Shown here piece after piece: positions 3,001 to 50,019 of a DNA stretch of 64,000 nt. The position numbers were made by a program, and so were the translations under genes. The number at the start of each line of letters is the position of its first letter. The first letter of the stretch is position 1. Source of the stretch: Psammoneis japonica (taxonomy: Eukaryota); NCBI GenBank assembly GCA_008632985.1, contig QPGO01000024.1, positions 248,001-312,000 of the forward strand, in the 5' to 3' direction. The notes under the pieces were generated by a model that was not told the origin of the DNA, made no database searches, and worked only from the letters and a program-made list of their open reading frames with translations.

Positions 3001-3689
3001 CTGAGCTTTGTGTGCAGAATGTCACAAAACTGAGCCGGCCATTGTTGTTGCCAACATTGTTGTTCTCGTCATTGTCCATGTTGCTGTCACAAGAAGATGG
3101 CAAACTTGTTCACTTCCAGTCTGAAACAAAGATGGTTGTTAAAAGAGGGCCAGCAGGGTGGGAGTGGCAAGCAGGTTTCCGGGTGGCTGACAAGTTGGTG
3201 TGGAGTGCATGGCATGCAACCAGTGCACATTGTGAAAAGTGTGCCCATCTCTGTCTCACTCAGCCCAGAAGGTTTTTCCCTGTTCAAAAACAAGTGCTGA
3301 AAGCCAAGGACACTTCTGTTTTTTGTGCAAAATGGGTGGTGTTTGGCAAGTTCTTAGCTGGTCAGTCTTGTGTGACAGAGAGGTCCTCTGCTGGTGGCCA
3401 ATGGCAATGGCAATGTGTTTGCTGCAAGCCACACAGCGAGTTTGGAGATGGCACGACCAAACACACAACAGTTGGCGAGCCATGAATCTCCAACAAAAGA
3501 GTGCCCCTGTGCTGCTGTTGGGATGTCAGGATGCAGGGCCAAGGAAGTTTTCACAGAACAGATGTCAGAGACACCAAAGAACAAACCAGAGGAGCCAGAA
3601 TGTCCATCGGGTGCAGCTGCACAAGAGAAGGACAAGGCTGTCTGGGGGGGGGGAGCAATGCAATCACCAAACAATGAAACAGGATGCAA

Positions 3690-4320
3690 TCTACAAGATG
3701 CAGAAGGTGAAGGTGTTTGGCACAATTGTGGGACAGTGTGTGAAGGCTGTCTGTCACAAGGTTGAAGGAGTGATGGAGTTTGAGAGGGCCACAAGAAAGA
3801 AGTGGGACATGGCGGTGCTGTTGGAAATTCTCAAGTCAATCTTGTTCAACACAAACAAGAAAATCTGCTTGCAAGCCCAGATGGTCCAGGCTTGGAAGCA
3901 GCTGGCACTCATTCATCAGGATGAAGGAGTGGCACTTCAAGATTGCTGGAGTTGGCTCCTTGTGAACACTGTTGAGATGGTGGCAGGGTCCTGCAGCAGA
4001 CTTGTCCCGGAAGAAATTGCCAAGCAAGGATGCTGATGATGCACAGAAAAAAGAAAAAGGAGCAAGTGCTGCCAATGGAGGGCACCAAGGAACATTGGCT
4101 CATCATCTTGAAAGAAAAGCACTGGCAGCTTGCACTGGAAATTGACAACTGTCCCAACTCAGCTGTGGAGGCACTGCAGGTGTTGGATGCATGTGGGTCT
4201 GACAAGAATTCTGAGGGCATGAGCTTTGCACAAAATGAGAAGAAGCAGATCCAGTGCTGGAAATCTGGAAATGCAACAAGGTTGGGCATGTGAAGAAGGG
4301 CTGTTCTTTGCTCAGTGACA
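3690..4320 (+). mobile_element. Degenerate Ty1/Copia (CoDi-like) gag remnant
   Basis: KVFGTIVGQCVKAVCHKVEG...WDMAVLLEILKSILF resembles the diatom Copia gag pattern (I.GQCS..M..KLE...D...LL..IK). A frameshifted zinc-knuckle-like segment follows (CWKSGN..RLGHVKKGC). Confidence 0.55.
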
Positions 4321-6974
4321 GTGATGATCATTTGTTGGTGGAGTCGGCTGAGGACATTCTCAGTTTTTTTTTTCTGCCAAATCGCCTTTGTTTTTGCTGC
4401 CCCGGCCCCACCACTGAGAATGGTGGGCACATGATGTGCAAAGTGGCAGCCATGCCAACTTGACAAGCATGACTCAGATTCAGTGCAAATTTGTTGTCAG
4501 TGCACTGTGGCCAGAAACTGCACAATTCACCTCACCATGGTGACTCAGCAGCTGCCAATTTCTCAATGGCATTGCTTGAAAGAGCCACAACAATCAACTG
4601 CACATTGCATCTTATGAACTCAAATCCAGGCAGCACAACTGACATGTGAGAGTGCATCTGGCTTGTTGTTGACTCATGCAGGTGAAAAGTGATGGGCAAA
4701 AAATTAAACATTTCAGCTGTTTTTGCTGCAATCAATTAATTTCAAAGCACACAGCAAGGCACACACATTGAAATTCAAATTGCAAGCTGTTGACACATGT
4801 GCCATTGTCATGATGAGTTTGTTGTTGTTGACAGAGTGTGTTGCACTCATGGTCGCCATTGCTCTTGGCACACATGAGGCCAGTCAATTGACAGCTTGTG
4901 CAAAGGAGTGTGTTGGAACGTTGGAGTGCAGTGCAGTTTCCACAGGATGGACAGACAATGTTGCAGTGAATGACATGCACTGACAAGATTGTTGATGATG
5001 TGGTGAATTTGTGCTTGCAACTCATGTTGAGTTGAGGGTCTTTTTTGCTCCCTTTTTGGCTTCTGTGCCTGATTGACACAGCAGCACCAGTGGCAACAGC
5101 AATGGAAATGTGTTTCCAACCCATGTGGCAAGTTTGGGGATCAAGGAGACTGAGCATGCACCTGTCGGCAAGCTGTGAAATTCCAACATGTGGCCAGTCA
5201 CAGAGCTCCTGCATCCAACAACTCCTCCGCATGGCTGGCAAAGACACCACCCCACCTCTGTGCATCACCACCCTCTGTTTTGTTTGGAGGGAGAGCTCTG
5301 TGGCCCAATTGTTGATCAAGACCTTTGATCAACAAGTGCTCCAGGGTCTCTGCAGCAATCATGACTGTTTTTCTCCCCCCAAGCTCTGAGTGATGGATTT
5401 CTCAAGAGAGCAGCAACAATGATGATGAGGTCCATTTTTGTGCATTGTGCCACAGCCCCTAACTTGTCAAATGTGAGTCACACCCTTCCCTGGGGTGGCT
5501 GCCATCAGGCCCCACACTGTTGCCACCAAAAGGGGCAATGAAAACACTGCTTTGGTTTGCCCACATCCAGCGCCATCATGGGCCATTGAAAACACACATC
5601 ATTTGGTGTGATTTTGGCAACAAAAAAGCCTGGGACAAGAAATTTGAGGAAGAGTTCAACCCTGGCTCCTTTGAAAGGGAAGCCACATGCCATGTCATGT
5701 CATGAAATGTGGCAGCAATGAATGTGGTCGTGCAGCTCTTGCTGGGGCAGAGCTGCTGACCAGTCTGCACAGCTTTTGTTGTTCATCAACTGACAAGTTG
5801 GCTTTTGTTTGAGCAGAAGCAGCAAGAGACAAAATGATTTGTTGCAGTTTTTTCAGGTGCAAGCAAATCATGTTGTGGATCTTTCCTGCCTGCCAGCTCC
5901 TCCACAGCAAGCCCACCCTTTTTTTTTGCTGAACGTCCATTTTTCCCCTGGCGGCAAGCCCAGTGGTTGTGCATGGACACAAACATGTCACATGTTGTGC
6001 CAACCATTCTTAAACCCGTTGCAGTCATGATGAAGGGGTGCAACTCGGGGTGTGATTTTGGGGTGTGCACGCGTCTCTGTGCCCCTCAAAAATTGCAGCC
6101 AACAATTGCCCCTCCTGGAACATTCCTGAACCTGCCATCTCAAGACCATTTTGTCAAAATTGTCAATGCCTGCATGTCATGTGCTTGCCATTGAGGTGGC
6201 ACAGGCACAAAAATGCACTGTGGCACTGGATGGACAGAAATCTTGAATGTTTCTGGGAATCAGGAATTTTGTCACCAAGGTTGTTGTTTTGAAAATGTTG
6301 TTGTGTGGACGTGTGAACACATTTGTTTTCCTGCAAAAAATGTCTCTCAAAAATCAACGCTGCTTTTGTTGCAATGCACTGATGTCTTTGCACTGCTGTG
6401 TGAACACCACGCCATTGCAGCAACACATCATTCTCATGACAAACTTTTCAAGTGGCACATGACATGTTTTTTACTTTCTGGATTTGGCAGCATGCAACGG
6501 AGACCCAACATGATGCACGTTGGAGGTCTGCATTGAACACCTTTGCCAAGACATCCATGGGAGATCCTTGCATGCATCCTCTGCATGGACTTCCCTCACA
6601 TTGCTTGTGGTGACGTGACCACCATTTTCATTGTTCGGCCATCCGGGCAGTCAATGGTGTCTCCCTGTTGACTTTCAATGGTCCCTTGGAACGTGTCCTC
6701 CAGCAAGTCAAAATGGCCACAATTGAAATTGTGCTTCTCACAAAAGTCAACTGGCTCACCCTCCTCATGCTCCTGTGGCTCCCCCTGTTTCTTTGCATGA
6801 ATTTCCTTGCAGCCTTCACAAGGGGCCCACGGCTCTGGGATGTCATCCACGATGCTCATTGTTGATTGCACAAGAGTGAGAGCATGTTGTGCACGGATTG
6901 GTTCCAGCTTCCAGCAGCTCAGCATTTTTCTAAGCTTTTTGCCACAACAGACAAACGAATTTGGATTCTGCTGA

Positions 6975-8030
6975 ATGCAAAATGGGGTGTTCTGTGAAAA
7001 ACTCCAGGATTCAAAATGGCAGTTCTTGTCAGACAAATCTGCACGCAAGCTGTGCACCAGTTGGAGAAGGGGGTGTGGGTGGAAACAAATTTGCAACAAG
7101 CAGCAATGCCAGCAGCAGAGTTGGCAGAGCAGGTGTTGTCAAATTTGCACCAACATCCAGTGCAGCAGATCATGTCTCGACGTGAGGTTGAAAACTCAAG
7201 GCTCTGCCTCATGGCAAGCCAGGCACAAGCAGAACAATGTTGCCAGCCATCTCCTTTGGAACTTGCCTGGAACAAGTGTTGCCAATGATGACAGCAGCAA
7301 CAGTTCTGACAACAACAATGGCAATGACAGCCACACACTGCAGTGGACTGAGGATGAATCTGCTGCCAACAAACGCCATCCTGAATCAGAAGACGAATCT
7401 GAAGAGGAAGAGGATGAGCTGAAAGATGACAGAGACTGTTGTGTGTCACTTCCATTGAAAGAACCAACTGAGATGATTGAAAAAAACATGGTTTGCAAAT
7501 GCTGCACAAGTCCTTTCTGTGTCACTGCCAATGAAGTTAGCTTGTCGTGTGCCATCTTGTGCAGATGTGACAAAGGACACGTCACAATGTTGGAGCCCAA
7601 GACTCTTCCCACTGGACACCAGAACAATGCTGTTGCACACACCATCAACATCAAGTCTGTGCTTGCGTGCCACTTGACCGGCTTGGGCAATTCAGACCTC
7701 CAAACAACATGTGGCATCTTGGGCCTGTGCTGTTTCTAAAGCCTTGGTCCACCATTGAGAAGAAGTTGCATCCAATCATGGAAGAAATTGCAAATGAGTG
7801 CATGGATCACAATCTGAAGAAAGAGTGGGAAGCCACCCATGCACAACGGCTCCCCGGATTGGCTGGTGGAATGGACACAGGATGGCAGGCACGTGGGTCC
7901 GGCAACTCATGCAGCTCCAACAGTGGCCATGCATTCACCACCGGCAGCCTGAGCAGCAAAATCATTGCAAAGAGCTTTCCACATGTTTTTGAAGATGTGT
8001 GATGAATCTAAACAGAAAGGTGCCAAAATC
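6975..8030 (+). mobile_element. Degenerate Mutator-like transposase
   Basis: CKCC...CRCDKGH, HTINIKSVLACHLTGLG and MDTGWQARGSGNSCSSNSGHAFTTGSLSSKII match the Mutator-like motif DMGWQKRSSG..Y.S.SGHAF.IG..S.KI. Broken by a frameshift/stop at ~7739. Confidence 0.7.
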
Positions 8031-8450
8031 ACAATGTTCGAGATTTGGCGAGCAATGCTGAATGAGGGGTGCATGGAAACTTGCAGTTTCTTCCCACAAA
8101 CAAGACAAGGGGAGTGTGAATGAGTGCTCCAAACACTTTGTCACAAGAAATGTTCAAGTTTCCATTGTCCGGGAGAGGGTTTCAGTCAGTGAGGTGACTT
8201 TGACAATTTGTGCAGAAAACACACTGAGTTCTACACAACAGAAAATTGGGCCCAAATTTGCACCCGTGCCACCTCAATTGTCACGCTTTGTTGCCAAAAC
8301 AATGTCACACATTTGAATGCTCACATGTCATTGTGGAAAATGCGCAACAAAGAAGACCATCTGGCAAGGCATTCTCATTGCTTAAATTGCAATGACTCAA
8401 GAATGGAGTTGCTCAAATGAAAGTCACAGTTGTCAAACAATGCTTGTGAC

Positions 8451-8712
8451 TCATGACAACTCACAACAACTCACGACAACTCACAACAGCTCACAACAGC
8501 TCACGACGACAAATTTCACTTGACACACTGCAACTCGCGACAATTCTTCAGACAGTGCACATGCACACCAACATGCATCACAACATGTCCAATCACACTT
8601 GGCATCTGAGCACTGTGTGTGCAAGTGCTCCCGACAACTCATGACATTTCTTGCTCAACTCCCAACAACTCACGACAACTCACGACAGCTCACAACAACT
8701 CACAACAGCTCC
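8451..8712 (+). repeat. Two clusters of a 10-bp tandem repeat (consensus ACAACTCACR)
   Basis: tcatgacaac tcacaacaac tcacgacaac tcacaacagc... at 8451-8510, and again at ~8655-8712. Confidence 0.8.
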
Positions 8713-11090
8713 AGACAAGTCAGGTCATTTGATGCAATGACTTGGCAACAAGCAGCTCTCGCCAAAACAATGATCGTTGCTTGTTTGACTTTAAGTGTGG
8801 GTTGAACAAATGGGCTGCATCTTAAAAAATTGTCAAACACTGGTCAGCAGACATTGCAATTTGTTGGGATTGCCAAAATGAGAATGCTGTCAATGTCACA
8901 TTTGCAGAAAAGAAAATGCACAAGGTGGCCGATTCGGGAATGTTCCTGAGGCATGTAATTTTTGCCTGCAATTTTTTGCAAGTGTCTGCAATTTTTCACA
9001 CAAAAACAGACTCATCATCGTCCATGATGGCAACAAACATCAGAATGTCAAACAACAATGGCAACCAACAATCAACAATGAACTTCAACCAGCAAGAGAT
9101 GCAAGAACTTGTTGATGGGGAGCCATCATGACATGGCAAAAAATGGCAAGATTGCCATCAACAGACAACAAAAAAATGAAGGCAAGTTCATGCCATTTCA
9201 GAAGAAAAACACATCACATGGTCACTGAAACTTTGGCTGTGGATGCAATTGCAACACACGATGTCAATCACACAATTGCAAAAGACCACACTTGTCAGAA
9301 CAATGATTTGACATGCGCGCAAGGTTGCAGCGGAGCCGCCAAACACCATGGTGTTTTGATGCTGTCAACAGAATGTTCAGCTGTGTGCACAAATGAGTTG
9401 ATTGAAATCAGAGATGCAGAGTTGTTCCTGCTTTGTTGTCAACAATTTTGAGGAACATGCACTCAATGCATGTGTCATCTCTGGCAGAATTGCAGACATC
9501 CAATTTCACACTCTTGCAGTCGTGAGAAAATCGGGTGTGATTTTGGGGTGCAAGTTGATGCAATGGGCATTTTTGCACCTCCAAATTGCACCCAAATTTC
9601 CACAACTGCAATGGGTCTCAGTGTCAGGCCCCCAGCAGAAAAAAATGGACGTTTGGCAGAAACAAAAAACTCAGCACAGCAAGACAACGTGCCAGGCTCA
9701 GCAATGCCCAGGGCTGGCAGTTGGTTGCCTCTTTCAATGTGTTGGCTCAATCAAGAGGTGGTGGTGAGAAGAATTTTGTGCCAAGCCATGTTTTAAAACA
9801 AAAGAGAAAGCAAACACAGCTGCAGCACAGGCACCTGTGCTGCACATGAAATGAAGGTGGTGCGGCAGATGAAATGAAAATTCAAGGGTGTCATCAAGCC
9901 CATCTGTGATCATCTGTGGTGCTGAACAAAGAGCTGCAAGATGTTGAAAGTGACCAAAAGCTTGTTTCACAGCATCACAAAGCTCTGCCTTCTTGGACAG
10001 CCAAAAAACTGTGATTGCCCCACAATGACAAATCAATCTCAGGGCAAAAATGTTGTCAAGATGCAGCAAAAGCTTTGAGCTGCAGCTCAGATTCTAAAAA
10101 CCTGACTGGAAAAAGCTGGTGTCCTCTGAGAAGTGCAGCAATTGTTCTGCAGGAAACTCAAGAAATTGAAGTGCAAGCTGTGCAGAAAAGCAGCAAGCTG
10201 AGCATGCCTGGAGCAGCTGCGTGTTCAGTGCAACAAGAGACTTGGGCAACTCTTTTGGAAAGAACAGCTGAAAACCAAAAACACTGCAACATGCAAAGGG
10301 GCTTGCTGCCAGTCTTGTTTCAAGGCACAAAGCAACATGCTGGCACATGAAGTGCAGCAAATGGCTTTGCTGCAACCAAGCACCAGCTGAAGTGTGCTGC
10401 TGGTGCCCTTGACAATTGGGTTTTTGCCCTGGCTTGCTCTGCAGTGGTGGTGGGCCAAGGCAACAATGGGTGTCATTTTTGGAAAACAAGAGCAGGGCAT
10501 AACATCAAAGGGGGTCTCAGTGATCTTTGCTTGCAAGATGAGTGCACTTGCCCCCCCCTTGGCAACAAACTTCAGCAACTCAACGCTCACAGTTGCCAGC
10601 GTTTCAGCTGGTGGGAGCCTTGGTGCCATGACAACAAAAGAAGCCTGCTGGGTGCCACCCAAGTGTCAAAAAGTGCTGTGTGGGGAATGTGCCTGCAGCA
10701 GCCCCAGCGGGCTGCAAGCAAGTGTGGTCCCTGAGATGCTTCTGTGCTCCAAGCCCATGCTCCAAAATGATCAAAAAGACTGGAGCATTTGCACTTTATC
10801 CCGAACGCTGGGGAGTGGCTCGTGTTGTGGCAGACAGACGCGCTCCAAGAGATGTTGCGCGTTCATGGTGCGCGCGGAACTCGGAACGCGAGGTACGGTC
10901 GTAGGTCTAGGTAGACGAGCGAGAGACGAGACGGAGTGAGATATGCAGACAATGATGGATGCGACGACGACGACGACTCGATCGGAGTATGCCAGCTCAC
11001 AACGAGTGCGAAACTGTGTGAGTGACCGAGTGAGTAGTCAGTCGAATTTTGCCACCAGCTTGCTCTTGAAGTTTTGGTTGTTCCACGCCA

Positions 11091-12239: not shown

Positions 12240-13697
12240 AACCTAGAATGCACCTACTGCATCCAAATCCCTCGACTCAAATTGCAACTACATCATACAC
12301 CGGGAGCCCCAGCAGGAGGCTGTCCCGTTTGCTTTCCCGCTCTCTTAACTTCACCCACCAAAAAGAGCTTGTTAGCAAGGACGGTTGCAAGATGGCAGCA
12401 CTGTCTTTTGACACGGATGTTATCCCAGACTCCTCGTCAGCAGGAAGCATTAGGTCGCCAGTCTTACAGTCTAAACCCACTGGCAATCCTGAGGATTCAT
12501 CATCATCTTGCAACCTCAAGATGCTCTCTTGTACATCAAATCCAGAATTCTCCGCAAGAGTCTTTGGAACAAGCAAGAGTGCTTCCGCAAAGGCTTCTAC
12601 ACCAAGCTTTGCTTGTCCCTTTGTTGTCTTGATGATTTTTTTTGTCTGAGATGCGTGGATGTAGCCAGTTGAAGGCCCTGGCTCTCCTGGAGTGACAAAC
12701 CCATCCTCAGTGCCGCCATTCTTGACCACACAAAGTCCATCACCAAATGGCGCCCTTGATCCAGTTGATGGTGTGTGTTTGTTGGGTCCCTGCAGAAGGA
12801 GAGTGCAGCTCTTGGGATGATGACATTTCTCCACAAAGGCAATTTTGCCATCCCCTGGGGGGAGCAACTCCGCAGACCTTTCTTCCGGCCCATGAAAACT
12901 GCTCCTCATCCATGTGTGTTCAACCAAATGAGAATGAGAGAACCTCCACATGCCAAAGTGAGGTGCTCCGTGTTGCACTGCTTGGCATGGTGCAAGCATG
13001 AAATGCCTTCTTTTTTTTGGCAAAAATGTCAAGCGGCAAAATGGGTCAACTCCCTTTTGACCATCATGACAAATCTCTCACTCTGCTGCAAGCAGGAGCT
13101 GTTGTGACAATGATGTGTTGTGGGCTGGCACATCAAGGGCATGATGAGCAATGGAGCAACAGTGGCCATTCTAACCAGCTTTTCTTCTTGGTTTGCAGCA
13201 ACAAGAGACCACCCACAAGCATGATTTGTGGACGCAGCCCTTGGCGGCAAAAAGTGGCCTGCACGCTGCGGCAATTCTCTGTGCACAACAAACACTTGAG
13301 GTCATGCCAACATTGACTCCAGCTGTGCTGTCTTGAGAGGTTGGTGTGCTTGGGCCAAGCCAGCATGCACCTGCACATCAGCATGTGGTGCGCTGGCACG
13401 CACAGGTCAGGGGGTGCTGCTGCACCGGCAGATTGAGAGGCAGCACCCCCCTTGTTGTGCAAGAGAACAACCGCGCACTGCCATCTTTGGAGAGCTCAGT
13501 TCGTCCTGTGCCACTGACCAGCATCCTGAGAGTGCCCAGAGGTCTGAGGTTGCTCTTGACAATGCTCCACAGCCCCGCCCCCGGCTGAGATGCCCCATAA
13601 CAGGCATTGACTCAGAACTCAGAAGACTGCCCTCGTCTGCCCCGGGCATGACACAAATTTTGGCATTGGGGTTGAGTTCTTGAAGATGAGATGTCAT
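12240..13697 (-). pseudogene. CCT6: T-complex protein 1 zeta (CCT6) pseudogene
   Basis: Fragments in shifting frames: MTSHLQELNPNAK, VKSNLRPLGTLRMLVSGTGRTELSKDG, FVEKCHHPKSCTLLLQGPNKHT, KGQAKLGVEAFAEALLLVPKTLAENSGFDVQE. Multiple frameshifts. Confidence 0.85.
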
Positions 13698-13958
13698 GTT
13701 GCTGTTGCTGCTTCTGTCATTGAGAGTGCTGGATGAGAGAAAGTAAGAAACAACAACTCGAAGATGCGGGGCAGTTGGAGTGGGGGTCGAAGCAGGCAGG
13801 GTTGAAGATCGTGTCACCGCGCGATGCATCGCGCGAAATATGCGCGCCAAAACAAACGCAAGCCAGCCGAGCCCAAAATTTCTCGCACCGCAAATCAGAA
13901 GATCAGCCTCACGCCACACTGTTCAGCATTCAGCAGTTACAGTACGGCATCTATCACC

Positions 13959-23132: not shown

Positions 23133-24192
23133 TGTACAACAAGAACTTCTATTGAAATAGAGCAAGAGGAACTGTCTTCAATTCCTATTCTTATCCTCTC
23201 AGAAGTACGCTTTTCTGTTACGACTTTCACGAAGCGTGGTGCGTCGGTATCAGGTATCAGGGACGGAAGATCTCGACCACACATCACCATTGCGGCCGCA
23301 ATCAATTTTCAGCGTCTTTGAAAGCATATTCAAAGCTGATAACCTGTTACAGTACACTGTACGTAGAGCTTGTACCAGACAGAAACCGGATCTAAGCATA
23401 GCTAAAGTACGTTCAATTCTACGGGGAGTTGCAGGAAAAAACGTCTACGCATGGTTCCACGCGTTTTTTCCCTAAAAAGGCGCCACCAGCCCGCGCCGCA
23501 GATAGCTGGCTACTAGTCCCACTACTAGCAGTAGCTAGAGTGGAGAGAGCAGGGCCCTACAGAAACGAACCCACTGTATGTACCGGGCGGCCGTACTGTA
23601 CTGCACCTACCAGAGAAAGAGAGCAGACGATTACGACGACTGCCAGCATGCCGCACGTACGTCGTACGTGCAACAGCGAAAAGCCAAAGGCGTGAGCACT
23701 GCTGCACTCGTACTGCCGAGTTCATCACCGAGTCAAACTACAGTCTACTCTGCTAGCTAGAGCAGGCCCTGCTGCTGCTACAGTAGCAGCTGTGCTAAGA
23801 CTGTTATTGAAAGAATATTTTGTTGTGCCAATCAGTCACTAATGATCCTAAATCCCAATCTGTGCATTGTGTCAAATGCGCGCGCATCCTGTCCGCTGGC
23901 GTCCAGCTGCCCTGTGTTTGTGCCAGGCGCTGAAAAAGAAGATGTGTTACGACTCTGTCGTTGTGAAAATTATGAGCTAGTTTAGAGTAGAGAAAATGGG
24001 ATCGTGCGAACAGGGAATCTTGCCAAATCCCTGTTCGTTCGCACTTGGATCGCATCAAATCGATCGTGCGCTCGCATTGTGGATCGTGCGAATCAAGCCA
24101 TCATGCGCCATGCACGAGTGATGTCATCGTGTGGAATCACGCTACCATCGTGGGCCAGACGACGGGCTAGTGTGCTTCACACGGATGCTCTC

Positions 24193-25463
24193 TCAGCATC
24201 CTTCTGGAATTGCCTGAGACCTGGAGCCACGCCCTCCTGTGGTCGTGCTTCCCAGGCACGTGTCAACAACACTGCGTTGCCACGTGCAAGAGGCTTGTGC
24301 ACGGTCTCGCCGTGTTGTCCAGCAGCGAGGCATGCTGCACAGCTCCCAATTGCAGCCAATGAGTCCAACACCGTCGCCTGTGGCATCAATCAACTTGACT
24401 TTTGGATTCTCCACAGCGCAGCATGTCGAATCTTCCGACTTGAGGTCCACATGAATGATCCTGGACCCATCGCGACCACCCAACAAATGAACCTTGTTGA
24501 TTTTCCTAGAGACCTGGATTGGCAAGGGCACGAGGGATGTGGAAGACAGGACCTCAGAGTCACACTGCCTCATTGAAGACAGCTCATCTGAAAGAGCTTC
24601 AAGGCGCTTGCAGACGTCACGGAGTTCATCATCGCCACCGTGGTTTCCCCCTTGGGCAGTGGCTTCATCAAGGAGAACTGCGTGGAGAGCGTCCATGTCC
24701 ATGGAGTGCTGTGGCCACTGGGAAACGCAACTGAGCATCCACCCATTGCTCACAACAGACAGCTGGATGCCAGAAAGGTCCGTGGTGCAAACACCAGATG
24801 GAGCCACAATGACCAACATGACATGATTGGTCTTGGTGACAGAGTCCTTGCAAGTGGCTTGCAAAACCATGGGCTTGAAGCTTTTCCAAGAACCTCCTTG
24901 CCCACCACCACGTGCCTCCATCACAGAAGCAACACCAGCTCCATTCATGACAGCAGCTGCATCGTTGTTGTTTGCAGGAGCTGGAGCCGACACCGTCCGA
25001 CGAGTGCTGTCAAGGCCACCCGAGAACAGCTCTTCGTCGCCGTCGTCGGTGTCTGTGGCCAGATGAAAAAAAAGAACACCGCGCGACGCGGTCAAATGAA
25101 AATGCACGCGCAAGCAACACAGTGACGTCACTCACATTCATTTCGAATGCATGTGCGAACACGGTGAAAATCAAAACTCACCGTCAGGGTTCTCATTGCT
25201 GTCGTTCATCGTTGACGAAGATTGAACCCGGTTTCGTCTTTGAGCCTGTGCAAGCCAGTGCGGAACTTGTCCAGTGGATGGTGCATGAACTCTGCACGCA
25301 TCTGCTGGATCTCTTTTGGCGTCGCTCCAGCGCTTGCCCTCCCATCCATCAGCATCTCCTTCAAGAGTTTGCAGTCGGCAGACCCCTTGCGCCACACTGC
25401 TCGAAGGGGGCCGGCGGCCTCAGTGTCAAGAACCGATTTGGTTCGTTGGTTGAGTTTGGGCAT
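24193..25463 (-). pseudogene. Degenerate accessory ORF, probably of the adjacent PIF/Harbinger element
   Basis: ORFs 25206-25508 (WRKGSADCKLLKEML..PKEIQQMRAEF..PLDKFR) and 24193-25131 are Tyr-free and divergent from the transposase. Harbingers typically carry a second ORF. Confidence 0.45.
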
Positions 25464-26402
25464 GGCTTCTTTGGTTTTCTCTTTTTTATGAGAGGATTGA
25501 TGGTGCACAGTCGAGAGTCGTCAAGATCAGCGTTCGCATTGACGGGCAGCAATGAGAACCCCATTTTTGAATGGGTCACGACCAACTTACCTCACCACTG
25601 TCCGCGGGACACTCTTTTCAAATTTGAACAAATTCCAACCGCCAAAGTGAGATTTGAGAAAACACCAACCGCCAACATTGAGAAAGGGCCTCTTGACAAT
25701 GAAGATTCCCTCAAGACCACACGAAAAATGTTCCGAGACCACACAAAAATCGTTCCCAAATCACACCCAAAACGATTTTCAGCTCCAGAACGATGACTTT
25801 GGACCCACTCAACTGAAGAATGAGTGGCTGAATCCTGAGCTTCGGCGTGTGTTTGCGACAGCACTGATGGCAAACCAGCTCCTGATGTTTATTTTGGCTT
25901 TTCATTGGCATGTTTCCGTGCGCTTTTCGTCCATGAAAAGGCGATTTCATTTTGATTTGTAGAACAAGAATGCTTTTTTAATGCCCCACCAACAACGGAC
26001 CATGGTTGTAAAATTCTGTGTCGCATGTTGCATGTAAACTGCTGTGTCAGTTGAGCCAAGAGCACGCTTTGGAATGGTTGTTCTGCCGTGTTCCGGTTGA
26101 CAAAATGACGCCCAAAGTTGCCCATTGTGAACGTCCCGAAGTCACCATTCGGAAACCACACCCGAATCGCATTTTTTTCGCATTTTCTTCAAACACAACG
26201 GAACCTCACCAAAGGCCTCTTCCAATGAGAACCCCAACTGCATGAAGACGACAAAACATGGTTGTCAAATGTAAAACAACTGCCACTCTAGAGCAGCCAG
26301 CTGGAGACTGGAGACTGGCCACTGGCAGCAGAGACTGGCACAAACGGCGCAACAGAGAAAAGACTGAAGCAACACACTGTGGCACATTGCTGGTTGCTCA
26401 TC

Positions 26403-27320
26403 ATGAGACTGCCCAAAGAGGCCGCAGAGCACTTGGCACAGACGATCATTCAGAAGCCAAAAGGGTCAACTGCAGTGTGGAAACGTCGGTTCGCACCACA
26501 CTTCTGCACCCCAGAAGAAGTGGCACCTGAGTTGTGGGGGCTTCTCCTTGACGACGGGAAAATGCCACGAGGTTTTTTGCCCATTCACATGCTCTGTGCC
26601 CTTTGCTTTCTCAAATTGCACGAATCTGAGACAGTCGTTGCTGGCATCTGTAATAAAATCCATGAAGACACGCTGAGAAAATGGGTTTGGGTCGGAGCTC
26701 AACTCATTGGACAGTTGAATTTGGTGCGCACCATTCCAGATGGGACTTGCATGCATGAAACAAATGGGCTGACACCTTGTTCTTAGATTCGCTGGGAAGA
26801 CCGCTTCATTGATGATGATGGCAGCAGATGTTTGGTGACACTCGACGGCACTGACTTCAGAGTCTACGAGCCATCAAAATTCGATCCAACATGGCTCTCC
26901 CATGAATTCCACGGTGCTGGTCTGCGGCATGAAATTGGAGTGTGCATTCAGACAGGGTGGATTGTTTGGGTCAATGGGCTGCACCCAGCTGGGTTGCCGG
27001 ATCTGAACATTGCTCGTGAATGGATCGTTGAAGAGCTTGAAGATGGCGAGATGCACCCAGCCGACGGTGGCTGCAGCGACGGGAGCCAGCACAGCTCGAC
27101 TCCATCCGGCCTAAGAAATGCAGACGAGGCTGTGAAAACAACAGCAAGGGCAAGGCATGAGGCTGTCAATGGATGGTTCGAGCGTTTCGGAACACTTGAC
27201 AAAAGATGCCGCCACGCGAAGGAAACACATTGCCACGTGTTTCATGCCGTGGCCAACATCACACAGTTGGCCCTCATGATGGGTTGCTCACCATTTGATG
27301 TGGATTGTTTTGACAACTAA
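26403..27320 (+). mobile_element. PIF/Harbinger DDE transposase, mutated (likely intron ~26723-26787)
   Basis: VTLDGTDFRVYEP, SHEFHGAGLRHEIGVCIQTGWIVWVNG, ADGGCSDG and RARHEAVNGWFERFGTL. Positions expected to be Tyr read as His/Cys. Confidence 0.85.
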
Positions 27321-28414
27321 AATTAACAGTGGAAAGCATGTTGTCGCCAAGATGATGTTGCCGTGAACGTTCCTTAATCTCATTGTCGATGCAACGCCTC
27401 GCGAGTTCGATCGCGAGCAAAAGCGAACCCCTCCTCCCCACCACAGGCAGCCTGCAGCAGCGCCCTACAGCACTGTCATAGGGCCCACAGCATGCGCCGG
27501 ACTGCATCTCCGTGACGCACGGGCGGGTGGCGGCAGCGCGCCCGGGGATGAAAATGCACCCACCGATGACGCAATTGTGACGTGTGCTTCACGCGCTTTT
27601 TCGTGGTAAGCCTTGCGGGGTGCAGACAGACGCCGGCAGTGCATCAGCGCATGCATTTTTTATTTCTGATGATTCCGCGCGCAGATGATGGGGATATCAT
27701 GCCGTACGACAGAGATGCCGATGCCGAGCTTCAAAACCACACTCTTGTCTCACACCCATTGAAGCTTGTGGTTGGTTGACTCCATTTCTCTTCAACCAAA
27801 AGCACTCACTTTTTCCTCTCGCATGGCAAATTTCAAGATTCTCAGCAACAAAAATCAAAAGCACAAAACAGCCCTCTGTTCGTTTCCACGACAGACACAC
27901 CCAGCATGACAACTGGCAGACAAGATGATGATGTTGTTTGCGGGGCAATGCGGCAGACAAACAATGCTACAAAAAAAGCTGCCGCGTGTCACATCATCCG
28001 TGCCATCAAGCAGCAGTGCAACAATTGTTTTTTCCTGCAACTCCCGGTACTGATAGAGATAAAAGGTACGCAGTACCAACCACAAATCAGATTTTCAAAA
28101 ATTTGAAAAAGAGATGATTCGAGCTAAAGATCGTCTCACACTCCAACATCGTCCGAGTTTTCCCTTCGTTTTCTTTGCTGAAGAAGACAATAAGATGCTA
28201 CACATGGTGATGGAAGAGTGCTGCCATACCCGCGTTAGACCTGGAGGCAGGCTTGCAATGTTGAGCTATCACGGCATGGAAACGTGTAGAAACGAATACG
28301 AGTTACCGAAGACGAACTAAAAAACAATCCAAGATAGCCAGGAGTGCGACGCTGCTGCAGAAAGGGTAGAAACGATAAAACATTAGCGTTGGCTATAGAT
28401 ATCATCAAAGCACG

Positions 28415-41186: not shown

Positions 41187-44100
41187 TGCAGGCAACTGTG
41201 GGAGACGCGGCAAACGCGGCAACACAGCAACACGCACACAACGGCGATACATACAAGTACATTATCCCGGGAATACAACCCATGTTGTATTCCGTAGTAT
41301 TTCTCCGTTGAATTCTACACATTGTACTGACCGTTACCCCACTTCAGCGACCGTATCTTCCGTGTTCTTGTGGAGGAAGCACGGGAATTTTTCCCGCATC
41401 GAAACAACCGGGTTGTTGCATGGTACGTCGCGTTTTTGATAGATTTATGCAACAACACAACCGAGACCATGCCGTCTAAAAAGTATTACAAGCCAACCTT
41501 GATAGCACTCACGTTATTTCTTGGCGGGGTGACTTGTCAATGTGAACAAGACTTCACCAACCAGAGGCCATTCAAACAACCCCCAACGATGTCGTGGTGG
41601 ATGGGTCTAAAGGCGCATGGAACGCCCGAACCAGGCGACAACAGCTTGCCCATGCAAGCAAGGTCAAATTGGTTGGAACACTGGAGGAAGCCGATTTCCA
41701 GCTGCATGTCAAACCGGTTGGTGCCGTGGAATGTTCTGTCAAATCAAGGCAACCCGACACGATCAACTGACGTAAAAAACCCCGTGCCATGTTTGACACT
41801 CACATTCAATGTTCTTGTTACATGCAGTGCGTGTCTAGGGCTTCATTCTTCCTTGTTCAATCCACAACATCGCTGGAGCGCCCCTTCCAATTGAAGCATC
41901 ATTTCTGTGCGCACGGCATCCAATAAATCCATCTGCACAGAATGGAATTTTGCACAACAAAGCCAAGCCTCTTGGATTCCTTGTACAATTTCCATTGACA
42001 ATGAAACAAGAATCGCAAAAATCGGCCCAAGGGATGTTGAGATGTTACCGCCGCCAACTCTTTGCCATAAATTCCAGTGGCAGCTCAATTTTGATTGTTC
42101 AACGACAAGCTCCGAAGAGAAAGTCAGCACCACAAAAACCCAAGCCCCGTGGACACCTTGTGGCACATGAGTCAAAATGATGACAAGAAGTGAGAAACAA
42201 CACCAAAGGTGCAATGGCACATCACAAAAATCCGTCATGTTGATGCTGCATTCTCACAATTTCTGCACTGCACCTTCAGCGACAAATCCGCCTCGACGGA
42301 TTGAACTCAACGCCAGCACCACTAGCCCATCACATTGCTTGCATGAAAGCTCCGAATGCTGCGAAAAGAAACGGGAAAATGCGGCAAAAATAGACACAGA
42401 TGTCAGCGACGCAAGGGAGGCCATTGTCGCGATCGTTTTCTTTTTTGGTTGTCTTCGCAGCTGCGCGTCTTGGAGGGTGCTGCAGGTTGATGTAGCGGAA
42501 GTCGGTGTCTGTGCTTTCCTGGTGACCCTGTAGAAGAAGTGCTAGACCCTGCGCAGTTGTGCCCAGGGTTGCATTCTTTCCGTCTGCCTCCACAATGCAC
42601 ACCTTGTGTCCAGCTTTGGCCAAAGTTGGCCACATGTCCGGGTTTTCCTTGGTGCACATTCAGCGCACATTCTACGCAGTTGGCCAACATCGACTCGAGC
42701 TCCGATGACTGGTTTCAGATTTTGCGGCCGGCTCGCGCGAATTTTTCGTTTTTCGACGTTTATCATGCAGCATTTCTGTTTGAAAATGTCCACAATTATG
42801 TTGTATTTTATTCATCATACACATGTTAGCACTCGCCACTGCACGTTTGTGCCAAAGCACACGCAGGGCAGATCGCTTCACCAAGCTCGATTCGAACGAA
42901 ATCCCGTGGACTCAAGGACAGTTTTGCTTGCACAGACCCTTTCAGTCGGCAAAACCACAGCATGCTGCAGCACTTGGGTACAAAATTACGCAAGTGCTTC
43001 ACCGTGTTAAAAAATGGCAACCACGGCGAAAGCACGAAGGAAAGAGACAATCTGTTGTCTGCCCTGTTTAACACTGGGACGTATCTTGACTGTACAAACT
43101 GATTGAACAGACACACTTGACAACACGCAATGATCTTCTGCCGAAGGAATCTACTTTGTCAGTCATTTAGAGTCTCACAAAGTGTCGCCAGTTAATTGCT
43201 GGCGTTTTGCGCGGCAATTTGGCGAGCGACTCACCGCACTTTACCGTGGTGAAACAAGGATTGTCCAAAATTTTCGATTTGACATCTCTGCTAGCGAAAG
43301 TTTCGAGTTGCACAACCTTTTCATGTGTCGAGCAACAGTTGCACAACGTCAAACCGCTTGCATTGCTCATGTGGACGTTCTCCACCCCTCAAACTTTTCA
43401 CCATGCTTTCATCACGTAATTTTGATTTGCAACGTAGAATTCTGCGTAGTTTGTGTGTGGCATGCTGTGGTTTGGCCTTTTTCTGAAAACTGAAAGGGTT
43501 TGCTGCATTGCTTCGTTTTGTTTTTGTCTGTCGTGCGTGTCGGAGCGATGGTGAAAATCCAACCGCCAAACCATTTGAACGCATTTGTGAAAGTTGTTGA
43601 ACAATGTGCTTTTGTTGCTTTTCTCTCATTCTTCCGAAGAGCAAAGCAACAACAGCCAACCAGATGGTTTTAATTGCTCTCACGTCTCCCACTCTCTGGT
43701 TTGTCCACCCAGCTTGGGGGGGCTGGGATTGGGGATTGGGGCTTGCAGAGCCGCTTGGCAAAACCACCCCACTCTGCCAACCAAGACCTGCTCCAGTCTG
43801 TTGCTGGGAAATGCAGGAGAACAACCAAGAAGGGCAACAACAGTTGCCCTGATTTAAGGTGCACGCAAATTGTCATGGACCAAGTTCTGTGTGCCATGCA
43901 TTGCACTGCAGTCACGGACAAAGATGTGGTTGGAGATTGGAGCAACACAGCTGCGTTGTGTGGCCGTTGATCTGCTGCATGTCAACTGCAGCCCAGAGAC
44001 TGCACAAAATGGACAATGATGGAAATGTCCAGAGCTGCACTGGTGTGACCAGAGGGTTGATCATTGCTGGCGCATGGGCGCTTTGCTGGTTGGCCATTGT

Positions 44101-45005
44101 CAACACAACAACAAACATGGATTTGAGACAAAACATTTTACGTTTCAATGATTGATGATCTCAGGTTTGTCAATCTTAGAGTGAGGGACATCTGGGGTGC
44201 TCTTTGTCTTTGTTTGGATGCTTGTCTCCCACCACAAATGAGAGCTTTGCAACACCTGTGGGCATGGAAGCATCACAAAGTGCCTGATCTGCGCCATCCT
44301 CATGACTGCATGCCTTTCAAATCAACTTGACAATGGCACTTGTGGTCTGCAAATGGCTCAGCACAATGAGTGGAGAGTGAGTGATGTCCTGCAACTCATC
44401 ATCATGATCAACACACTCTGTTTTGTGCTTGCAGTCCCCTGCCCTTGTGGCACCTTCATCCTGTCCAGATGCCCACGTCAAGCAAGTTGGCAATGAGCCC
44501 AAATGCGTGCTCCAACTTTCAAGCTTTGCCATGGCTGCCCTCTTGTGTGACAAACCTTGGCCAAACTGTTGAGAGAAGAGAGGCCAGCAGCAGCACTGTT
44601 GGCTTTTTTGTGGAAGCTGAGCTGAAGAAAAGTGCTTTGTTACAAGATTTGGAGTTGACAAAGATTGATGGGGTGGCTTGGTGGGATCAGCCTGCATTCA
44701 CAAGCTGGGTCCCTTGTCCAAAGGGATGAGAAAAGGGCAGTGGAAGGAGGCTTGTTTTGTGTGGTGACTCTCCAAGGAGCAGAGAGATGCACATTGTGAA
44801 CTTTCCTGTCCCCACGGTGGGTCCCACCGACAAAAAAGTCCAGAAGATGCATGTGACCCAGCTTCCAGTTTTGTGCAACAATGCCACAGCTGCCCACAAG
44901 CTCCATTGAAAGCATCAGTTGAAAGCCTTGTTGTTGACATTTTTGGCTGCAGAAACAAGTGGGGCTGTGTGGTTCTGTCTACAGTCACAACATAAAAGGG
45001 TCTTG

Positions 45006-45372
45006 TGCACTATGCTCGAAGAACGAGTGTAAACGAAAGTAGAACGAAGTTCGAAAAGTGAAAATTATGAGATTAATTTTTGCTCTGTGATTTTTGGTTT
45101 TTCCGAACGAGTTCTCAATGGCCTAAAGCTTCTGCACTGCTTCTACAGACAAAAGGCCTTTCGGAGAATATATTCGTGACAACAGATTGTCCGGATACGA
45201 TTGCTATTGACACGTAAGATGTCAACATCGTCAATCGATCGTATTTGCAATTTTCGACATCCGATCAACTCTGTGTGATCGTTCTGTCCTTTGTACGTAT
45301 CCACGACTGTGGTACGATTGACATATAAATAATATATAATCATAAATATGTATATAACAGCCGCATGCTGCA
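45006..45372 (-). mobile_element. Solo LTR (367 bp), same family as the element at 55838-60563
   Basis: Reverse complement of the LTRs at 55838 and 60197, with TGCA ends. Flanked by a CTTG duplication (45002-45005 and 45373-45376). Confidence 0.93.
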
Positions 45373-45963
45373 CTTGCCCTGGAAAAAAGCTTGCTGACAG
45401 GAAAACAAAGGGTGTGTTGCTGGCACTGGGCAAGCTTCTCACACAGTCTTTTTGGGTGCACAAAAGAGGGCTCCAACAAGGAGCTTTTCATCATGCCCCT
45501 GCTGCAAATGAACATGCAAAACAAGGCAGCGCAGTTGACAACAATGCCGCGTGACACTGATTTTTAAAACAATGCAGCAAAAATCTGTGGGGCTGTGTTG
45601 TGCAGCTGCCAGAGCATCAAAGCAAGGTTTGAGCAGCTTTGCTCACTGTCAACAAGTCTTGCACAATTGCCAATGAGGGTGGATCAGAACAAGACCAAAA
45701 AGACTGACTCTTAATTGTTTGAAAACAACAGCCACAAAGTGAAAAAATGCCCATTGGCTGGCCAGGAGAGGCAGTCATTTTTCAACCAAAGAGTGACTTG
45801 AGGCAACTCAAAACCCAGTGTGCTTGATGCTCACACATGAAGCAAATTGGGTGTGAGCCCTGGAGCATTTAAAAGTCATTGATTGCTGTTTTGTGCACAA
45901 AAATTTCTCACAAATTCAGTCATTTTGAGAGTGATCAGCCCCAAACCCCAACTTCATTCGCGT

Positions 45964-47639
45964 GGGGGGAAGGGTGGGGGGGGGGGCACAGATGGACACA
46001 GGGCCTGCCCCAGCAACAAGCAGAGCCCACAAAGGGATGAGGCAGGGGGAGTGCAAAAGGGATGTGACAGCATCAGCCACATTGAGTTTGTCACTTGGGC
46101 TGATTTGCAAAGTGCCATGTGTTGGCCAATCTGTTAGAAAAGCCTGCTTTTGAAGCAACTGAGCAGCTGCAAATCCTGCATGGAGCATTGCCCACAAAAG
46201 ATCCAAGAGCATGCTTGGCCTGCAGCAAGTTTTGCTGCAGCATTTTGTCCCCATGCACAGCCTGTCATGTCTGCCAAAGGCTCAGTTGCAGCTCAGGCCC
46301 ATGTTCTTCTTTGCACATCAATTGCCAGCTTGTGGTGCACTTGGTGTTGAGTGCTTTGCAAAGGAGCTCTTTAAGAGTCTTGACAATGGCAAGCACAGCA
46401 GCTCCACACATCTGCACTGTGTCAAGCAGCTCAACGATTGAATGCTGTTGAGCTTTCTGCTGAAAAATGGCGGTCCAAGCTCTGCAACATTTGGGCACTT
46501 TGGATGCACTTCGGAGTGCACTTCAAATGGTTTGCTGGAGTCTGGATGATGTGCATGCAATGACTTTTCAGATGTCATGCAAGAGTTGCCAAAAGGTCAA
46601 AAAAATGCAGCCACATGTCTTGTCAGCAGCCAGTCATCTCTGCAAATTGGCGCAGTTTTTTCTGTTTGTGGGCTGGCTGTGCATGCCTTGACCTTCTTTT
46701 TTGTCAACAACCAAGCCTTCCCTGCCATTTTCACACTTCCCAAGGCGCTCCAGGCAAGTTTGGCAAAGATTGATCTTGCTTGTCTCTGGCGAGTTGCATC
46801 GGGGGAAGGGTCGGGGGGGGGGGGGGGGCACAGATGGACACAGGGCCCACCCCAGCAACAAGCGGAGTTCACAAAGGGATGAGGCAGGGGGAGTGCAAAA
46901 GGGATGTGACAGCATCAGCCACATTGAGTTTGTCATTTGGGCTGATTTGCAAAGTGCCATGTGTTGGCCAGTCTGTTGGAGAAGCCTGCTTTTGAAGCTT
47001 GGACCCATGCAGGCATGGCTGCTTTGCAACAAAGCAGCTGAAAATCCTGCATGGAGCATTGCCCACAAAAGAGCCAAGAGCATGCTTGGCCTGCAGCAAG
47101 TTTTGCTGCAGCATTTTGTCCCCATGCACAGCCTGTCATGTCTGCCAAAGGCTCAGTCACAGCTCAGGCCCATGTTCTTCTTTGCACATCAATTGCCAGC
47201 TTGTGGTGCACTTGGCATTGAGTGCTTTGCAAAGGAGCTCTTTAAGAGTCTTGACAATGGCAAGCACAGCAGCTCCACACATCTGCACTGTGTCAAGCAG
47301 CTCAATGATTGAATGCTGTTGAGCTTTCTGCTGAAAAATGGTGCTCCAAGCTCTGCAACATTTGGGCACTTTGGAGTGCACTTCAAATGGTTTGCTGGAG
47401 TCTGGACAATGTGCAAGCAATGACTTTTCAGATGTCATGCAAGAGTTGCCAAAAGGTCCAAAAAATGCAGCCACATGTCTTGTCAGCAGCCAGTCATCTC
47501 TGCAAATTGGCGCAGTTTTTTCTGTTTGTGGGCTGGACGTGCATGCCTTGACCTTCTTTTTTGTCAACAACTGAGCCTTCCCTGCCATTTCCACACTTCC
47601 CAAGGCACTCCAGGCAAGTTTGGCAAAGATTGATCTTGC
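45964..47639. repeat. ~0.84-kb tandem duplication within the Gypsy remnant
   Basis: Units ~45964-46779 and ~46801-47639 both begin with a G-run plus CACAGATGGACACAGGGCC and end GATTGATCTTGC. Confidence 0.9.

Positions 47640-49977: not shown

Positions 49978-49978
<1 letters not shown>

Positions 49979-50015
<37 letters not shown>
49979..50015 (+). repeat. (CT)n microsatellite
   Basis: About 18 CT units. Confidence 0.95.

Positions 50016-50019
<4 letters not shown>

Follow-up and report, generated by a model that had tools for sequence, protein, structure and literature searches.

Probable TpA-specific hypermutation, separate from and ahead of CpG decay, in a PIF/Harbinger-like transposon of the diatom Psammoneis japonica

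Contained in a 64,000-nucleotide stretch of the genome of the diatom Psammoneis japonica (GenBank assembly GCA_008632985.1, contig QPGO01000024.1, positions 248,001 to 312,000; referred to here as the window) is a PIF/Harbinger-like DNA transposon of ~4.6 kb with two genes, bounded by terminal inverted repeats at about 23420–28049. In the core of this element the dinucleotide TpA (TA) has probably been converted to TpG or CpA (TG or CA) by a process that is separate from, and runs ahead of, a slower decay of CpG (CG). The window as a whole (G+C 47.96%) has an observed/expected ratio (o/e) of 0.34 for TA and 0.65 for CG, with TG and CA each at 1.46; its genes have a TA o/e of 0.59–0.63 and a CG o/e of 0.99–1.02, and its genic rate is 40.6 TA and 58.0 CG per kb. 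Measured against that rate, the tract 23991–28026 holds 27 TA where 163.7 are expected (Poisson P = 5e-40) and 211 CG where 234.3 are expected (P = 0.07).

The sequence-only reading of this DNA had counted by hand 0 TA and about 24 CG in bases 24901–25200, and an exact recount gave 0 and 24. The TA expected there number 15.3 by base composition and 12.2 at the genic rate (Poisson P = 5e-6), CG o/e is 1.11, and a single genic 300-bp window out of 457 has two or fewer TA. Segmentation of the window gave eight depleted blocks (Table 1), the repeat blocks having a TA o/e of 0.03–0.24 against the genic values above; the depletion is thus regional, leaving the rest of the window unaffected, and the block edges are sharp to within tens of bases. 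The TA-poor, CG-retaining stretches noted earlier near 56.7–59.4 kb and 63.3–64 kb are real (56501–59400 and 63401–64000), and a further block of this kind, absent from the earlier list, lies at 41501–43750. Blocks 1–10750, 12501–13750, 43751–54000 and 60751–62500 lack both dinucleotides, as had been claimed for the more decayed sequence.

The missing TA is accounted for by TG and CA. Summed over TA, CG, TG and CA, the density stays at 225–268 per kb across all 16 segments of the window, and at 232–250 per kb in the eight depleted blocks, except for the 600-bp block 63401–64000 at 225 per kb. In the tract 23991–28026, TG+CA is raised by ~49 per kb (191 per kb against 141–144 per kb in genes), with TA lowered by ~34 and CG by ~6 per kb; in the oldest blocks the corresponding values are ~+90 for TG+CA, -38 for TA and -50 for CG. 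In every block, the TG+CA excess equals the TA deficit plus the CG deficit. CA and TG are enriched to an o/e of 1.4–1.9, and the G+C content of the tract is 0.517, compared with 0.48–0.49 in genes.

The transposase gene records what was converted. Its open frame (26292–27320, 342 codons) contains a single TAG, which falls at the end of a 63-nt intron (26724–26786); the frame has no frameshift and retains its natural TAA stop at 27318–27320, so the earlier description of a largely open transposase frame was sound. The match to Pfam family DDE_Tnp_4 scores 13.8 bits (E 0.044), short of the cut-off of 24.8, and the family assignment therefore depends on homology: 68 homologs were found (best E 1.6e-64), PF13359 is present in many of them, and the two that are named come from the diatom Seminavis. 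Aligned with these homologs, the predicted protein retains D185, D258 and E290, and the homolog starts align with the Met at 26403. Tyrosine makes up 1 of its 341 residues (0.3%), compared with 0.9–6.9% in all 68 homologs.

Conservation in at least 60% of homologs defined 133 transposase columns, in which each dinucleotide type makes up 6.7% of the opportunities for change. The window differs at 34 of the 133, nine of them by multi-step changes and 25 by changes reachable with a single base: 6 TA-type, 2 CG-type, 5 other transitions and 12 transversions. The TA-type changes are Y110H, N176D, K205E, Y213H, Y261C and Y339C, and the CG-type changes are P230L (CCG to CTG; paralogs retain the C) and R295W. 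Codon 339, which specifies Tyr in 15 of 16 homologs, is TGT in the window and CAT in paralogous contigs assembled from three DNA sequencing runs of one sample. A second site with TG in the window and CA in a paralog lies at 27453–27454, and at three listed sites paralogs retain TA where the window reads TG or CA. In related loci the Tyr codon of LRYE is CAC in two (L021 and L022) and TGC in a third (L015). Together, these comparisons show an ancestor that evidently had TA, which different copies converted independently. Totals over the variant places (A>G 97, T>C 112, C>T 147, G>A 131, transversions 139) lean to independent conversion and are not counted here as evidence.

Judged from the substitutions, TpA was converted to TpG or CpA by A:T-to-G:C transitions confined to TpA, with either strand a target. 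The order of TG and CA products was compared with random order in a runs test, which gave z-scores of -0.04, -0.09 and +0.57 in three blocks, the first and last of these being two blocks of 8–11 kb. Simulated strand-coherent tracts of at least 100 bp gave z of about -3.3 to -4.5 for 10–24 kb, with low power for a 4-kb tract. APOBEC and ADAR enzymes act on RNA or cDNA intermediates, leaving strand-coherent runs. Strand-coherent editing of this style was rejected, there being no strand runs in the two large old blocks and equal numbers of TG and CA products. RNA editing followed by reverse transcription was likewise set aside as unfit for a DNA transposon, a pseudogene and strand symmetry, and GC-biased gene conversion because it would not be specific to TpA.

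Conversion of this kind raises G+C, turns Tyr codons into His or Cys and is self-limiting. Because each site is hit once only, TA can be driven to near zero; because TA-to-TG or TA-to-CA changes create no stop from a sense codon (TAA to TGA is possible), reading frames stay open at any load. The open frame remarked on in the sequence-only reading is accordingly no sign of youth. The idea that the frame is open through the disappearance of TAA and TAG was also rejected, as the total stop density of the tract is only slightly lower than that of genes (8.85 against 9.75–11.2 per kb per frame), TGA having risen out of frame.

CpG decay is visible in the same copy. The contig comparison listed 40 of 636 variant places and 13 of about 1585 contig pieces; 31 of the listed variant rows were classed, and in six of them the window has TG or CA where nearly all paralog depth has CG. 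Across the window, divided into 256 windows of 250 bp, the two losses are ordered: 114 windows are TA-poor (TA of two or fewer), with CG of four or fewer in 83 and of eight or more in 22, whereas among the 113 TA-normal windows (TA of six or more) CG is four or fewer in none and eight or more in 108. The state in which CG is lost and TA kept occurs nowhere in the window.

Related loci were obtained by scanning metagenome contigs with the transposase alignment, and the transposase segments of the resulting 80 loci were compared. Their TA o/e ranges over 0.11–0.93, their TA+CG+TG+CA sum is 245 +/- 11 per kb, and their TG+CA o/e is explained by TA and CG jointly (R2 0.71). Eight close pairs of loci share 95–99% DNA identity. 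In L015/L022, 32 of 55 TA sites differ and 7 of 66 CG sites (Fisher 2e-8), with 3 transitions and 8 transversions at the other 1227 sites; in L021/L022, 9 of 34 and 2 of 51 (Fisher 0.006), with 1 transition and 0 transversions at the other 934; and in L033/L037, 22 of 240 and 4 of 225 (Fisher 4e-4), with 3 transitions and 5 transversions at the other 3589. The per-site ratio of TA to CG divergence is 5–15 in these three pairs, which belong to two families, and in the same pairs CG sites exceed other transitions by roughly 20–45 fold. Divergence in L015/L022 is 0.87 at TA sites, compared with 0.0024 for other transitions. One of the loci, L040, has a 2.4-kb block without TA and CG adjoining its transposase copy (positions 1200–3658), the same end state as that of the old blocks of the window. 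Another, L012, has 0–1 CG per 200 bp at near-normal TA (6–9 per 200 bp) over positions 1000–2000, a decoupling in the reverse direction that is absent from the window.

These comparisons show TpA conversion as a process distinct from CpG-to-TpG/CpA decay, which affects the same copy as well, several-fold more slowly per site. As read from the loci, the two processes are separable in both directions, and the TA process is the faster where it acts, although it does not act on every copy or host. Of the earlier inference, that TpA conversion is faster than CpG loss and not its by-product, the separateness therefore stands and the greater speed holds for this window and three pairs, but not in general, given the other five of the eight. 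Repeats thus go through a TA-poor, CG-rich state before reaching one without both dinucleotides.

The process is patchy. Residual TA in the tract 23991–28026 is clustered, and its longest stretch free of TA spans 980 bp (P 0.016 if placement were uniform). Three of the related loci, L015, L021 and L022, align as a mosaic: columns 1–125 are identical and contain TA, columns 126–600 are converted only in L015, columns 601–984 are TA-free in all three, and conversion of columns 985–1114 is shared by L015 and L021. L033 and L037, which resemble alleles, differ chiefly in a tract of 1035 columns just upstream of the transposase core (L033:2–1036 and L037:1974–3008). This tract holds 22 changes of TA type, 20 of them on the L033 side, along with 4 of CG type, 3 other transitions and 4 transversions; the remaining 3485 columns hold 1 transversion. 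The tract has the look of polymorphic hypermutation, or of gene conversion, within a natural population of diatoms. The TA process is thus shown to cover element cores in tracts, to spare some ends and LTRs (long terminal repeats, described below) and to differ between copies. Already converted copies are also shown to be able to amplify.

Several observations weigh against TpA conversion as a separate, faster process at this locus. In five of the eight close pairs CG sites differ as much as TA sites or more (ratio 0–0.6), L017/L020 differing at 0 of 43 TA sites and 7 of 45 CG sites, and the environmental relative L012 has a CG o/e of 0.04 at a TA o/e of 0.42; TA-first order is therefore not general. 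TA and CG o/e are positively correlated, both across the 80 loci (rho 0.50) and across the windows of the window (rho 0.65), a relation that would also be expected from two age-dependent decays. The rate ratios derive from metagenome contigs of other organisms, and only the host of L033/L037 is placed among diatoms, by a BRAP2-like gene flanking L037 whose named relatives are all diatoms. Transversions are concentrated inside the environmental mosaic tracts (5 of 8 and 4 of 5), and the mosaics may reflect recombination between paralogs or chimeric assembly instead of tract-wise mutation. The two LTRs of a young LTR element in the window have 27 TA each and a single TA-type difference, a sign of uneven action within one element. 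At the TA-poor 3' end of the Harbinger-like element, an exact 287-nt unitig (27759–28045) has a depth of 363.9, or ~5.8 times single copy. The enzyme that would carry out the conversion is wholly conjectural.

Two outcomes named beforehand as adverse to the sequence-only reading bear on these points. The first was that TA and CG loss would track each other across copies; the ratios do correlate, as two age-dependent decays would also make them do. The second was a family consensus itself lacking TA, which is found in part for the youngest subfamily, as represented by the 287-nt unitig, and not for the deeper ancestor, which had conserved Tyr codons. The 'two-stage decay clock' proposed earlier does not survive as a clock. 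Because the TA process is patchy, copy-dependent and inheritable by amplification, and CpG decay leads in five of the eight pairs, the two decays give a usable order of repeat states, TA first and then CG, and not a metric.

The alternative that survives best is that the TA-poor state was inherited: a converted, non-autonomous master would have amplified, and the state of the block would date nothing at this locus. Part of the state must be inherited, because independent conversion cannot yield an identical 287-nt sequence at the depth observed, and the abrupt return to TA-normal flanks at the right inverted repeat, the TA-rich left subterminal part and the TA-normal LTRs (99.5% identical) around a TA-poor interior all fit such a lineage. 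Cis-acting ends would be TA-rich because only masters with intact ends spread. As an account of the whole pattern we regard inheritance as possible but doubtful, since the conserved Tyr codons of deeper ancestors contained TA, paralogs have CA in place of TG at two listed sites and TA at three, and L033/L037 combine their concentrated TA-type changes with a single difference elsewhere. Inheritance would also move the place of the loss, and would leave untouched the question of whether TA was lost ahead of CG in the lineage.

It is unlikely that the blocks represent two classes of repeat and not two stages, with all repeats losing TA, only some being CpG-methylated and the CG-rich blocks being unmethylated copies whose state would carry no information on time. 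Independent variation between copies or hosts is what L012 and the five CG-leading pairs show, and the LTR-element interior, in which no Pfam family exceeds its cut-off, nevertheless has a CG o/e of 0.92. Such classes sit poorly with the CpG decay of the Harbinger-like copy itself (the six listed rows, P230L and R295W) and with CG o/e values that are graded over the eight blocks (0.92, 0.83, 0.78, 0.68, 0.28, 0.16, 0.16 and 0.10). The CG-rich block at 41.5–43.75 kb adjoins a CG-poor one, and CG-rich blocks look young and CG-poor ones old. The hints of age are the 99.5% identity of the LTRs and the full-length transposase frame on the one side and, on the other, ~22 kb without both dinucleotides that gave one Mutator fragment among 239 open reading frames (ORFs), one of these blocks also holding a later solo LTR. 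That CG-retaining blocks are young and blocks without both are old (four blocks) is suggestive.

Less probable still is a single editor with two targets, converting TpA efficiently and CpG weakly, by which the CpG loss of the old blocks would not be 5-methylcytosine deamination. All six CG-type changes on the L015 side fall inside TA-conversion tracts, the constant TA+CG+TG+CA total would fit, and the Bigelowiella natans preprint discussed below cites enzymes of ADAT2 type for which A as well as C in DNA is a substrate (bioRxiv 10.64898/2026.01.13.699255). The L015 tracts also hold most of the transversions, however, so that the co-location may be mosaic ancestry, and the CG-only depletion of L012 and the difference between TA and CG sites in L017/L020 are hard to obtain from one editor. 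The sequence contexts differ, with a 5' T for A and a 3' G for C; all 230 A-to-G or T-to-C mutations reported in the B. natans viral regions are at TpA (bioRxiv 10.64898/2026.01.13.699255), and CpG methylation of diatom transposons is established (PMC9998398). Chance, a natively TA-poor composition or an assembly or sequencing artefact can be dismissed almost entirely: the nested 440-bp insert, which differs from its family majority at four listed places and whose consensus may be TA-poor, would suit a native composition, but the Poisson probability of the tract is vanishing, the same element has a TA-rich left part, exact run contigs (which may share a sample with the assembly) reproduce parts of the tract, Tyr has changed to His or Cys at invariant columns and related copies differ at exactly TA sites.

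For TpA conversion as a separate process, the agent would be a DNA adenine deaminase that prefers a 5' T, and the process would be aimed at silenced or foreign DNA. Deaminases of tRNA A34 act on U33-A34, and a 5'-T preference would fit such enzymes. The slower CpG decay would be deamination of 5-methylcytosine, by analogy with the diatom Phaeodactylum, whose transposons are CpG-methylated via DNMT5a (PMC9998398).

The Harbinger-like element is larger than the range first given for it, 24000–28040, which captured the TA-poor core and missed the true extent, 23420–28049, including a left part of 447 bp that is not TA-poor. Its ends are consistent with the run contigs: the unique flanks (depth 62–64) stop at 23453 on the left, where the 31-letter words on which the contigs are built lead one to expect a stop if the repeat begins near 23423, and begin at 28016 on the right, which fits ends at the inverted repeats. 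The outer ends carry TA, although within the inverted repeat, and no direct TTA or TAA repeat (a 3-bp TWA target duplication) was seen by eye. Depth over the left subterminal part is 282–681 compared with 62–64 in the unique flanks, marking it as repeated sequence, and depth over the element body is 200–1500, which implies a copy number between several and a few dozen, counting copies of at least 80% identity; self-comparison of the 64-kb window revealed no second copy within it.

Nested in the element is a repeat of very high copy number (23890–24340), whose summed contig depth of 34,000–70,000, against 62–64 for single-copy sequence, implies hundreds of copies. Some paralogs of the element lack it, as contig joints from 23889 to 24340 and from 23903 to 24340 bypass the repeat. 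Compared with its family majority, this copy has four differences among the places listed, and the family consensus may itself be TA-poor.

The second gene (ORF1) consists of two ORFs homologous to divergent ORFs that adjoin the transposase in the environmental locus L037 (E 4e-9 and 2e-11). No Pfam family, including the Myb/SANT domain, was matched by ORF1 at E up to 0.1. A putative GTGAGT..CCACAG intron was placed by eye at ~25053–25181; a stop lies at 25206–25208, and paralogs of this region have small indels at 25198–25213.

Table 1 Features of the window (positions are those of the window; o/e, observed/expected ratio)
Feature	Position	Strand	TA o/e	CG o/e	Remarks
Depleted block	1–10750		0.03	0.16	TG+CA 235 per kb; both dinucleotides depleted
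CCT-zeta (TCP-1 chaperonin) pseudogene	12300–13700	-			Pfam Cpn60_TCP1 E 8e-21; PDB CCT zeta E 1.2e-31
Depleted block	12501–13750	-	0.08	0.28	Part of CCT-zeta pseudogene
Left terminal inverted repeat	23420–23442				23 nt, 96% complementary to 28027–28049
Left subterminal part, not hypermutated	23443–23889		1.22	0.87	30 TA in 447 bp
Nested very high-copy repeat	23890–24340		0.31	0.97	~440 bp
TpA-depleted, CpG-retaining tract	23991–28026				Counts in text
Depleted block	23991–28040		0.11	0.78	Harbinger-like element core
Second gene (ORF1), interrupted	24193–25520	-	0.03		ORFs 25206–25520 and 24193–25131
DDE_Tnp_4 (PIF/Harbinger-type) transposase, full length	26403–27320	+			63-nt in-frame GT..AG intron 26724–26786
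Right terminal inverted repeat	28027–28049				Pairs with left repeat; repeat unitig stops at 28045
Depleted block	41501–43750		0.24	0.83	TA-poor, CG-retaining; element type not recognised, no Pfam family matched
Depleted block	43751–54000		0.04–0.07	0.10–0.17	Both dinucleotides depleted
Solo LTR of young LTR family	45006–45378				96% identical; flanking repeat CAAG; inserted in old block 43751–54000
Young LTR element	55838–60565	+			Direct repeats 55838–56207 and 60197–60566, 370 bp
Depleted block	56501–59400		0.18	0.92	TA-poor, CG-retaining
Depleted block	60751–62500		0.03	0.16	Both dinucleotides depleted
Depleted block	63401–64000		0.03	0.68	1 TA and 30 CG in 600 bp; truncated by window end

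The LTR element has two LTRs that are 99.46% identical, with 2 substitutions; TG..CA ends, a purine tract before the 3' LTR and a 4-bp flanking repeat, ATGC, were recognized by eye. Its TA o/e is 0.78 in the LTRs, and 0.76 over 59401–60700, with the depleted block of Table 1 forming the interior. Adjoining that TA-poor interior is a very TA-rich and AT-rich segment (59401–60200), in which TA reaches 30 per 250 bp and G+C is about 0.39. The interior contains no gag-pol above the Pfam cut-off (RT_RNaseH scored 20.5 and 16.5 bits against 24.8) and, read through its stops, no domain; it is most likely non-autonomous or decayed. The 370-bp LTR occurs three times in the window and is not TA-depleted.

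The chaperonin pseudogene has frame changes and stops, and its 5' 1.1 kb is without TA and CG, the 3' part (12300–12600) being normal; the depleted domain here ends within a host-gene relic and not at a transposon edge. Within the old block 43751–54000, which has no recognizable Pfam domain, is a tandem duplication (45965–46779 and 46801–47639, 91% identical) whose 28 substitutions comprise 5 TG-versus-CA doubles (10 substitutions), 5 CG-type, 1 TA-type and 12 others. It follows that some of the decay postdates the duplication. A Mutator-like transposase fragment (7571–7999, Pfam E 1e-7) is the sole recognizable domain of block 1–10750. The Pfam scan of the depleted blocks covered 239 stop-to-stop ORFs (97 of at least 110 amino acids and 142 of 70–109), and returned only the Mutator and CCT fragments, the weak RT_RNaseH and two presumed chance matches (Toxin_TOLIP and Apc5_N). 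Between the blocks are genes with long single ORFs, including SKA1, a Bmt2-like rRNA methyltransferase and an MFS transporter; the named relatives of the Bmt2-like protein are all diatoms (Cylindrotheca, Nitzschia, Seminavis, Pseudo-nitzschia and Odontella; best identity 59%).

A wider picture, which we offer tentatively and with slightly less than even confidence, is of an active, enzyme-driven DNA-editing defence in diatoms that rewrites TpA in tracts over the coding cores of transposons and over pseudogenes. Bigelowiella would share this system, which would be old within the Stramenopila, Alveolata and Rhizaria (SAR) and, on the showing of the TA-type changes between L033 and L037, still working in natural populations, leaving ghost frames behind and allowing edited elements with TA-free or protected ends to spread. 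If true, diatoms, which are major marine primary producers, would possess a defence that resembles that of fungi and is chemically opposite to it (A:T to G:C at TpA), and its origin, enzyme and targeting rule could be tested in organisms with genetic tools. As TpA editing creates no stop codons, full-length 'ghost' frames would be misread by gene finders and in age estimates, and TA-free open reading frames in such genomes are no evidence of live genes. Divergence-based dating of transposons would be badly biased unless TA and CG sites are excluded. Proteins depleted of Tyr also weaken homology searches, Pfam having missed here a transposase that sequence search matched at E 1.6e-64.

Among known systems, PIF/Harbinger elements share with the element described here a DDE transposase with D, D and E, terminal inverted repeats, a second gene and multiple copies; unlike them, it misses the Pfam threshold, has no detected Myb/SANT domain and does not evidently show the canonical 3-bp TWA duplication. 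Context-specific clusters of transitions in mobile elements are also a feature of APOBEC/ADAR editing of animal retroelements, and a preference of ADAR for a 5' U is mentioned in the B. natans preprint (bioRxiv 10.64898/2026.01.13.699255). That editing differs from the present case, in which the targets are a DNA transposon and a pseudogene, TG and CA products are equally numerous and strand runs are absent. Decay of CpG by deamination of 5-methylcytosine is matched by the slower process, which has the CG-to-TG/CA signature in the same repeat blocks: CG o/e is 0.10–0.28 in four blocks with a matching gain of TG+CA, and CG-type changes are private to the Harbinger-like copy of the window. The removal of TA is another process.

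Repeat-induced point mutation (RIP) of Neurospora and other fungi likewise ruins repeats by dinucleotide-specific transitions and leaves sharply bounded blocks of odd composition. It is chemically the reverse: RIP converts CpA to TpA, so that TA is enriched, G+C falls and stops are created, whereas the process described here destroys TA, raises G+C and is unable to create a stop. The dependence of RIP on duplication is not evident here either, the 370-bp LTR being untouched in its three copies in the window.

The closest counterpart is in the chlorarachniophyte Bigelowiella natans (Rhizaria). In mutation-accumulation lines of this alga, two integrated viral regions gained 231 mutations, of which 230 were A-to-G or T-to-C changes, every one of these at a TpA (bioRxiv 10.64898/2026.01.13.699255); they reportedly arose at about 1000 times the background rate and occurred only in some lines, and an ADAT2-like adenine deaminase was proposed (Mettrop et al., bioRxiv 10.64898/2026.01.13.699255). 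TpA depletion of the viral regions is mild there (Rho 0.45), and in the genome of B. natans the signature is associated with coding sequences for DDE endonuclease and reverse transcriptase. In the text examined CpG, diatoms and stramenopiles have 0 occurrences each, so that neither the relation to CpG decay nor the patchy sparing of element ends is treated in it. Our literature search for TpA-specific hypermutation returned only this 2026 preprint on B. natans and no report for a diatom; PMC9258296, returned for diatoms and hypermutation, is unrelated. The likeness lies in A-to-G and T-to-C changes only at TpA, giving TpG and CpA, in their regional distribution and in their absence from some lines or copies. 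The differences are that the mutations of B. natans were seen de novo and those of the diatom, a member of the Stramenopila, are read from sequence, and that the mild depletion of viral regions is replaced here by an o/e of 0.03–0.11 in transposons and a chaperonin pseudogene. The diatom case would thus add a lineage from a second eukaryotic supergroup, transposons and a host pseudogene as targets and near-complete depletion of TA. It would also put numbers on how TA loss relates to CpG decay, and show that the process is patchy, that the converted state can be inherited and that frames stay open under such editing.

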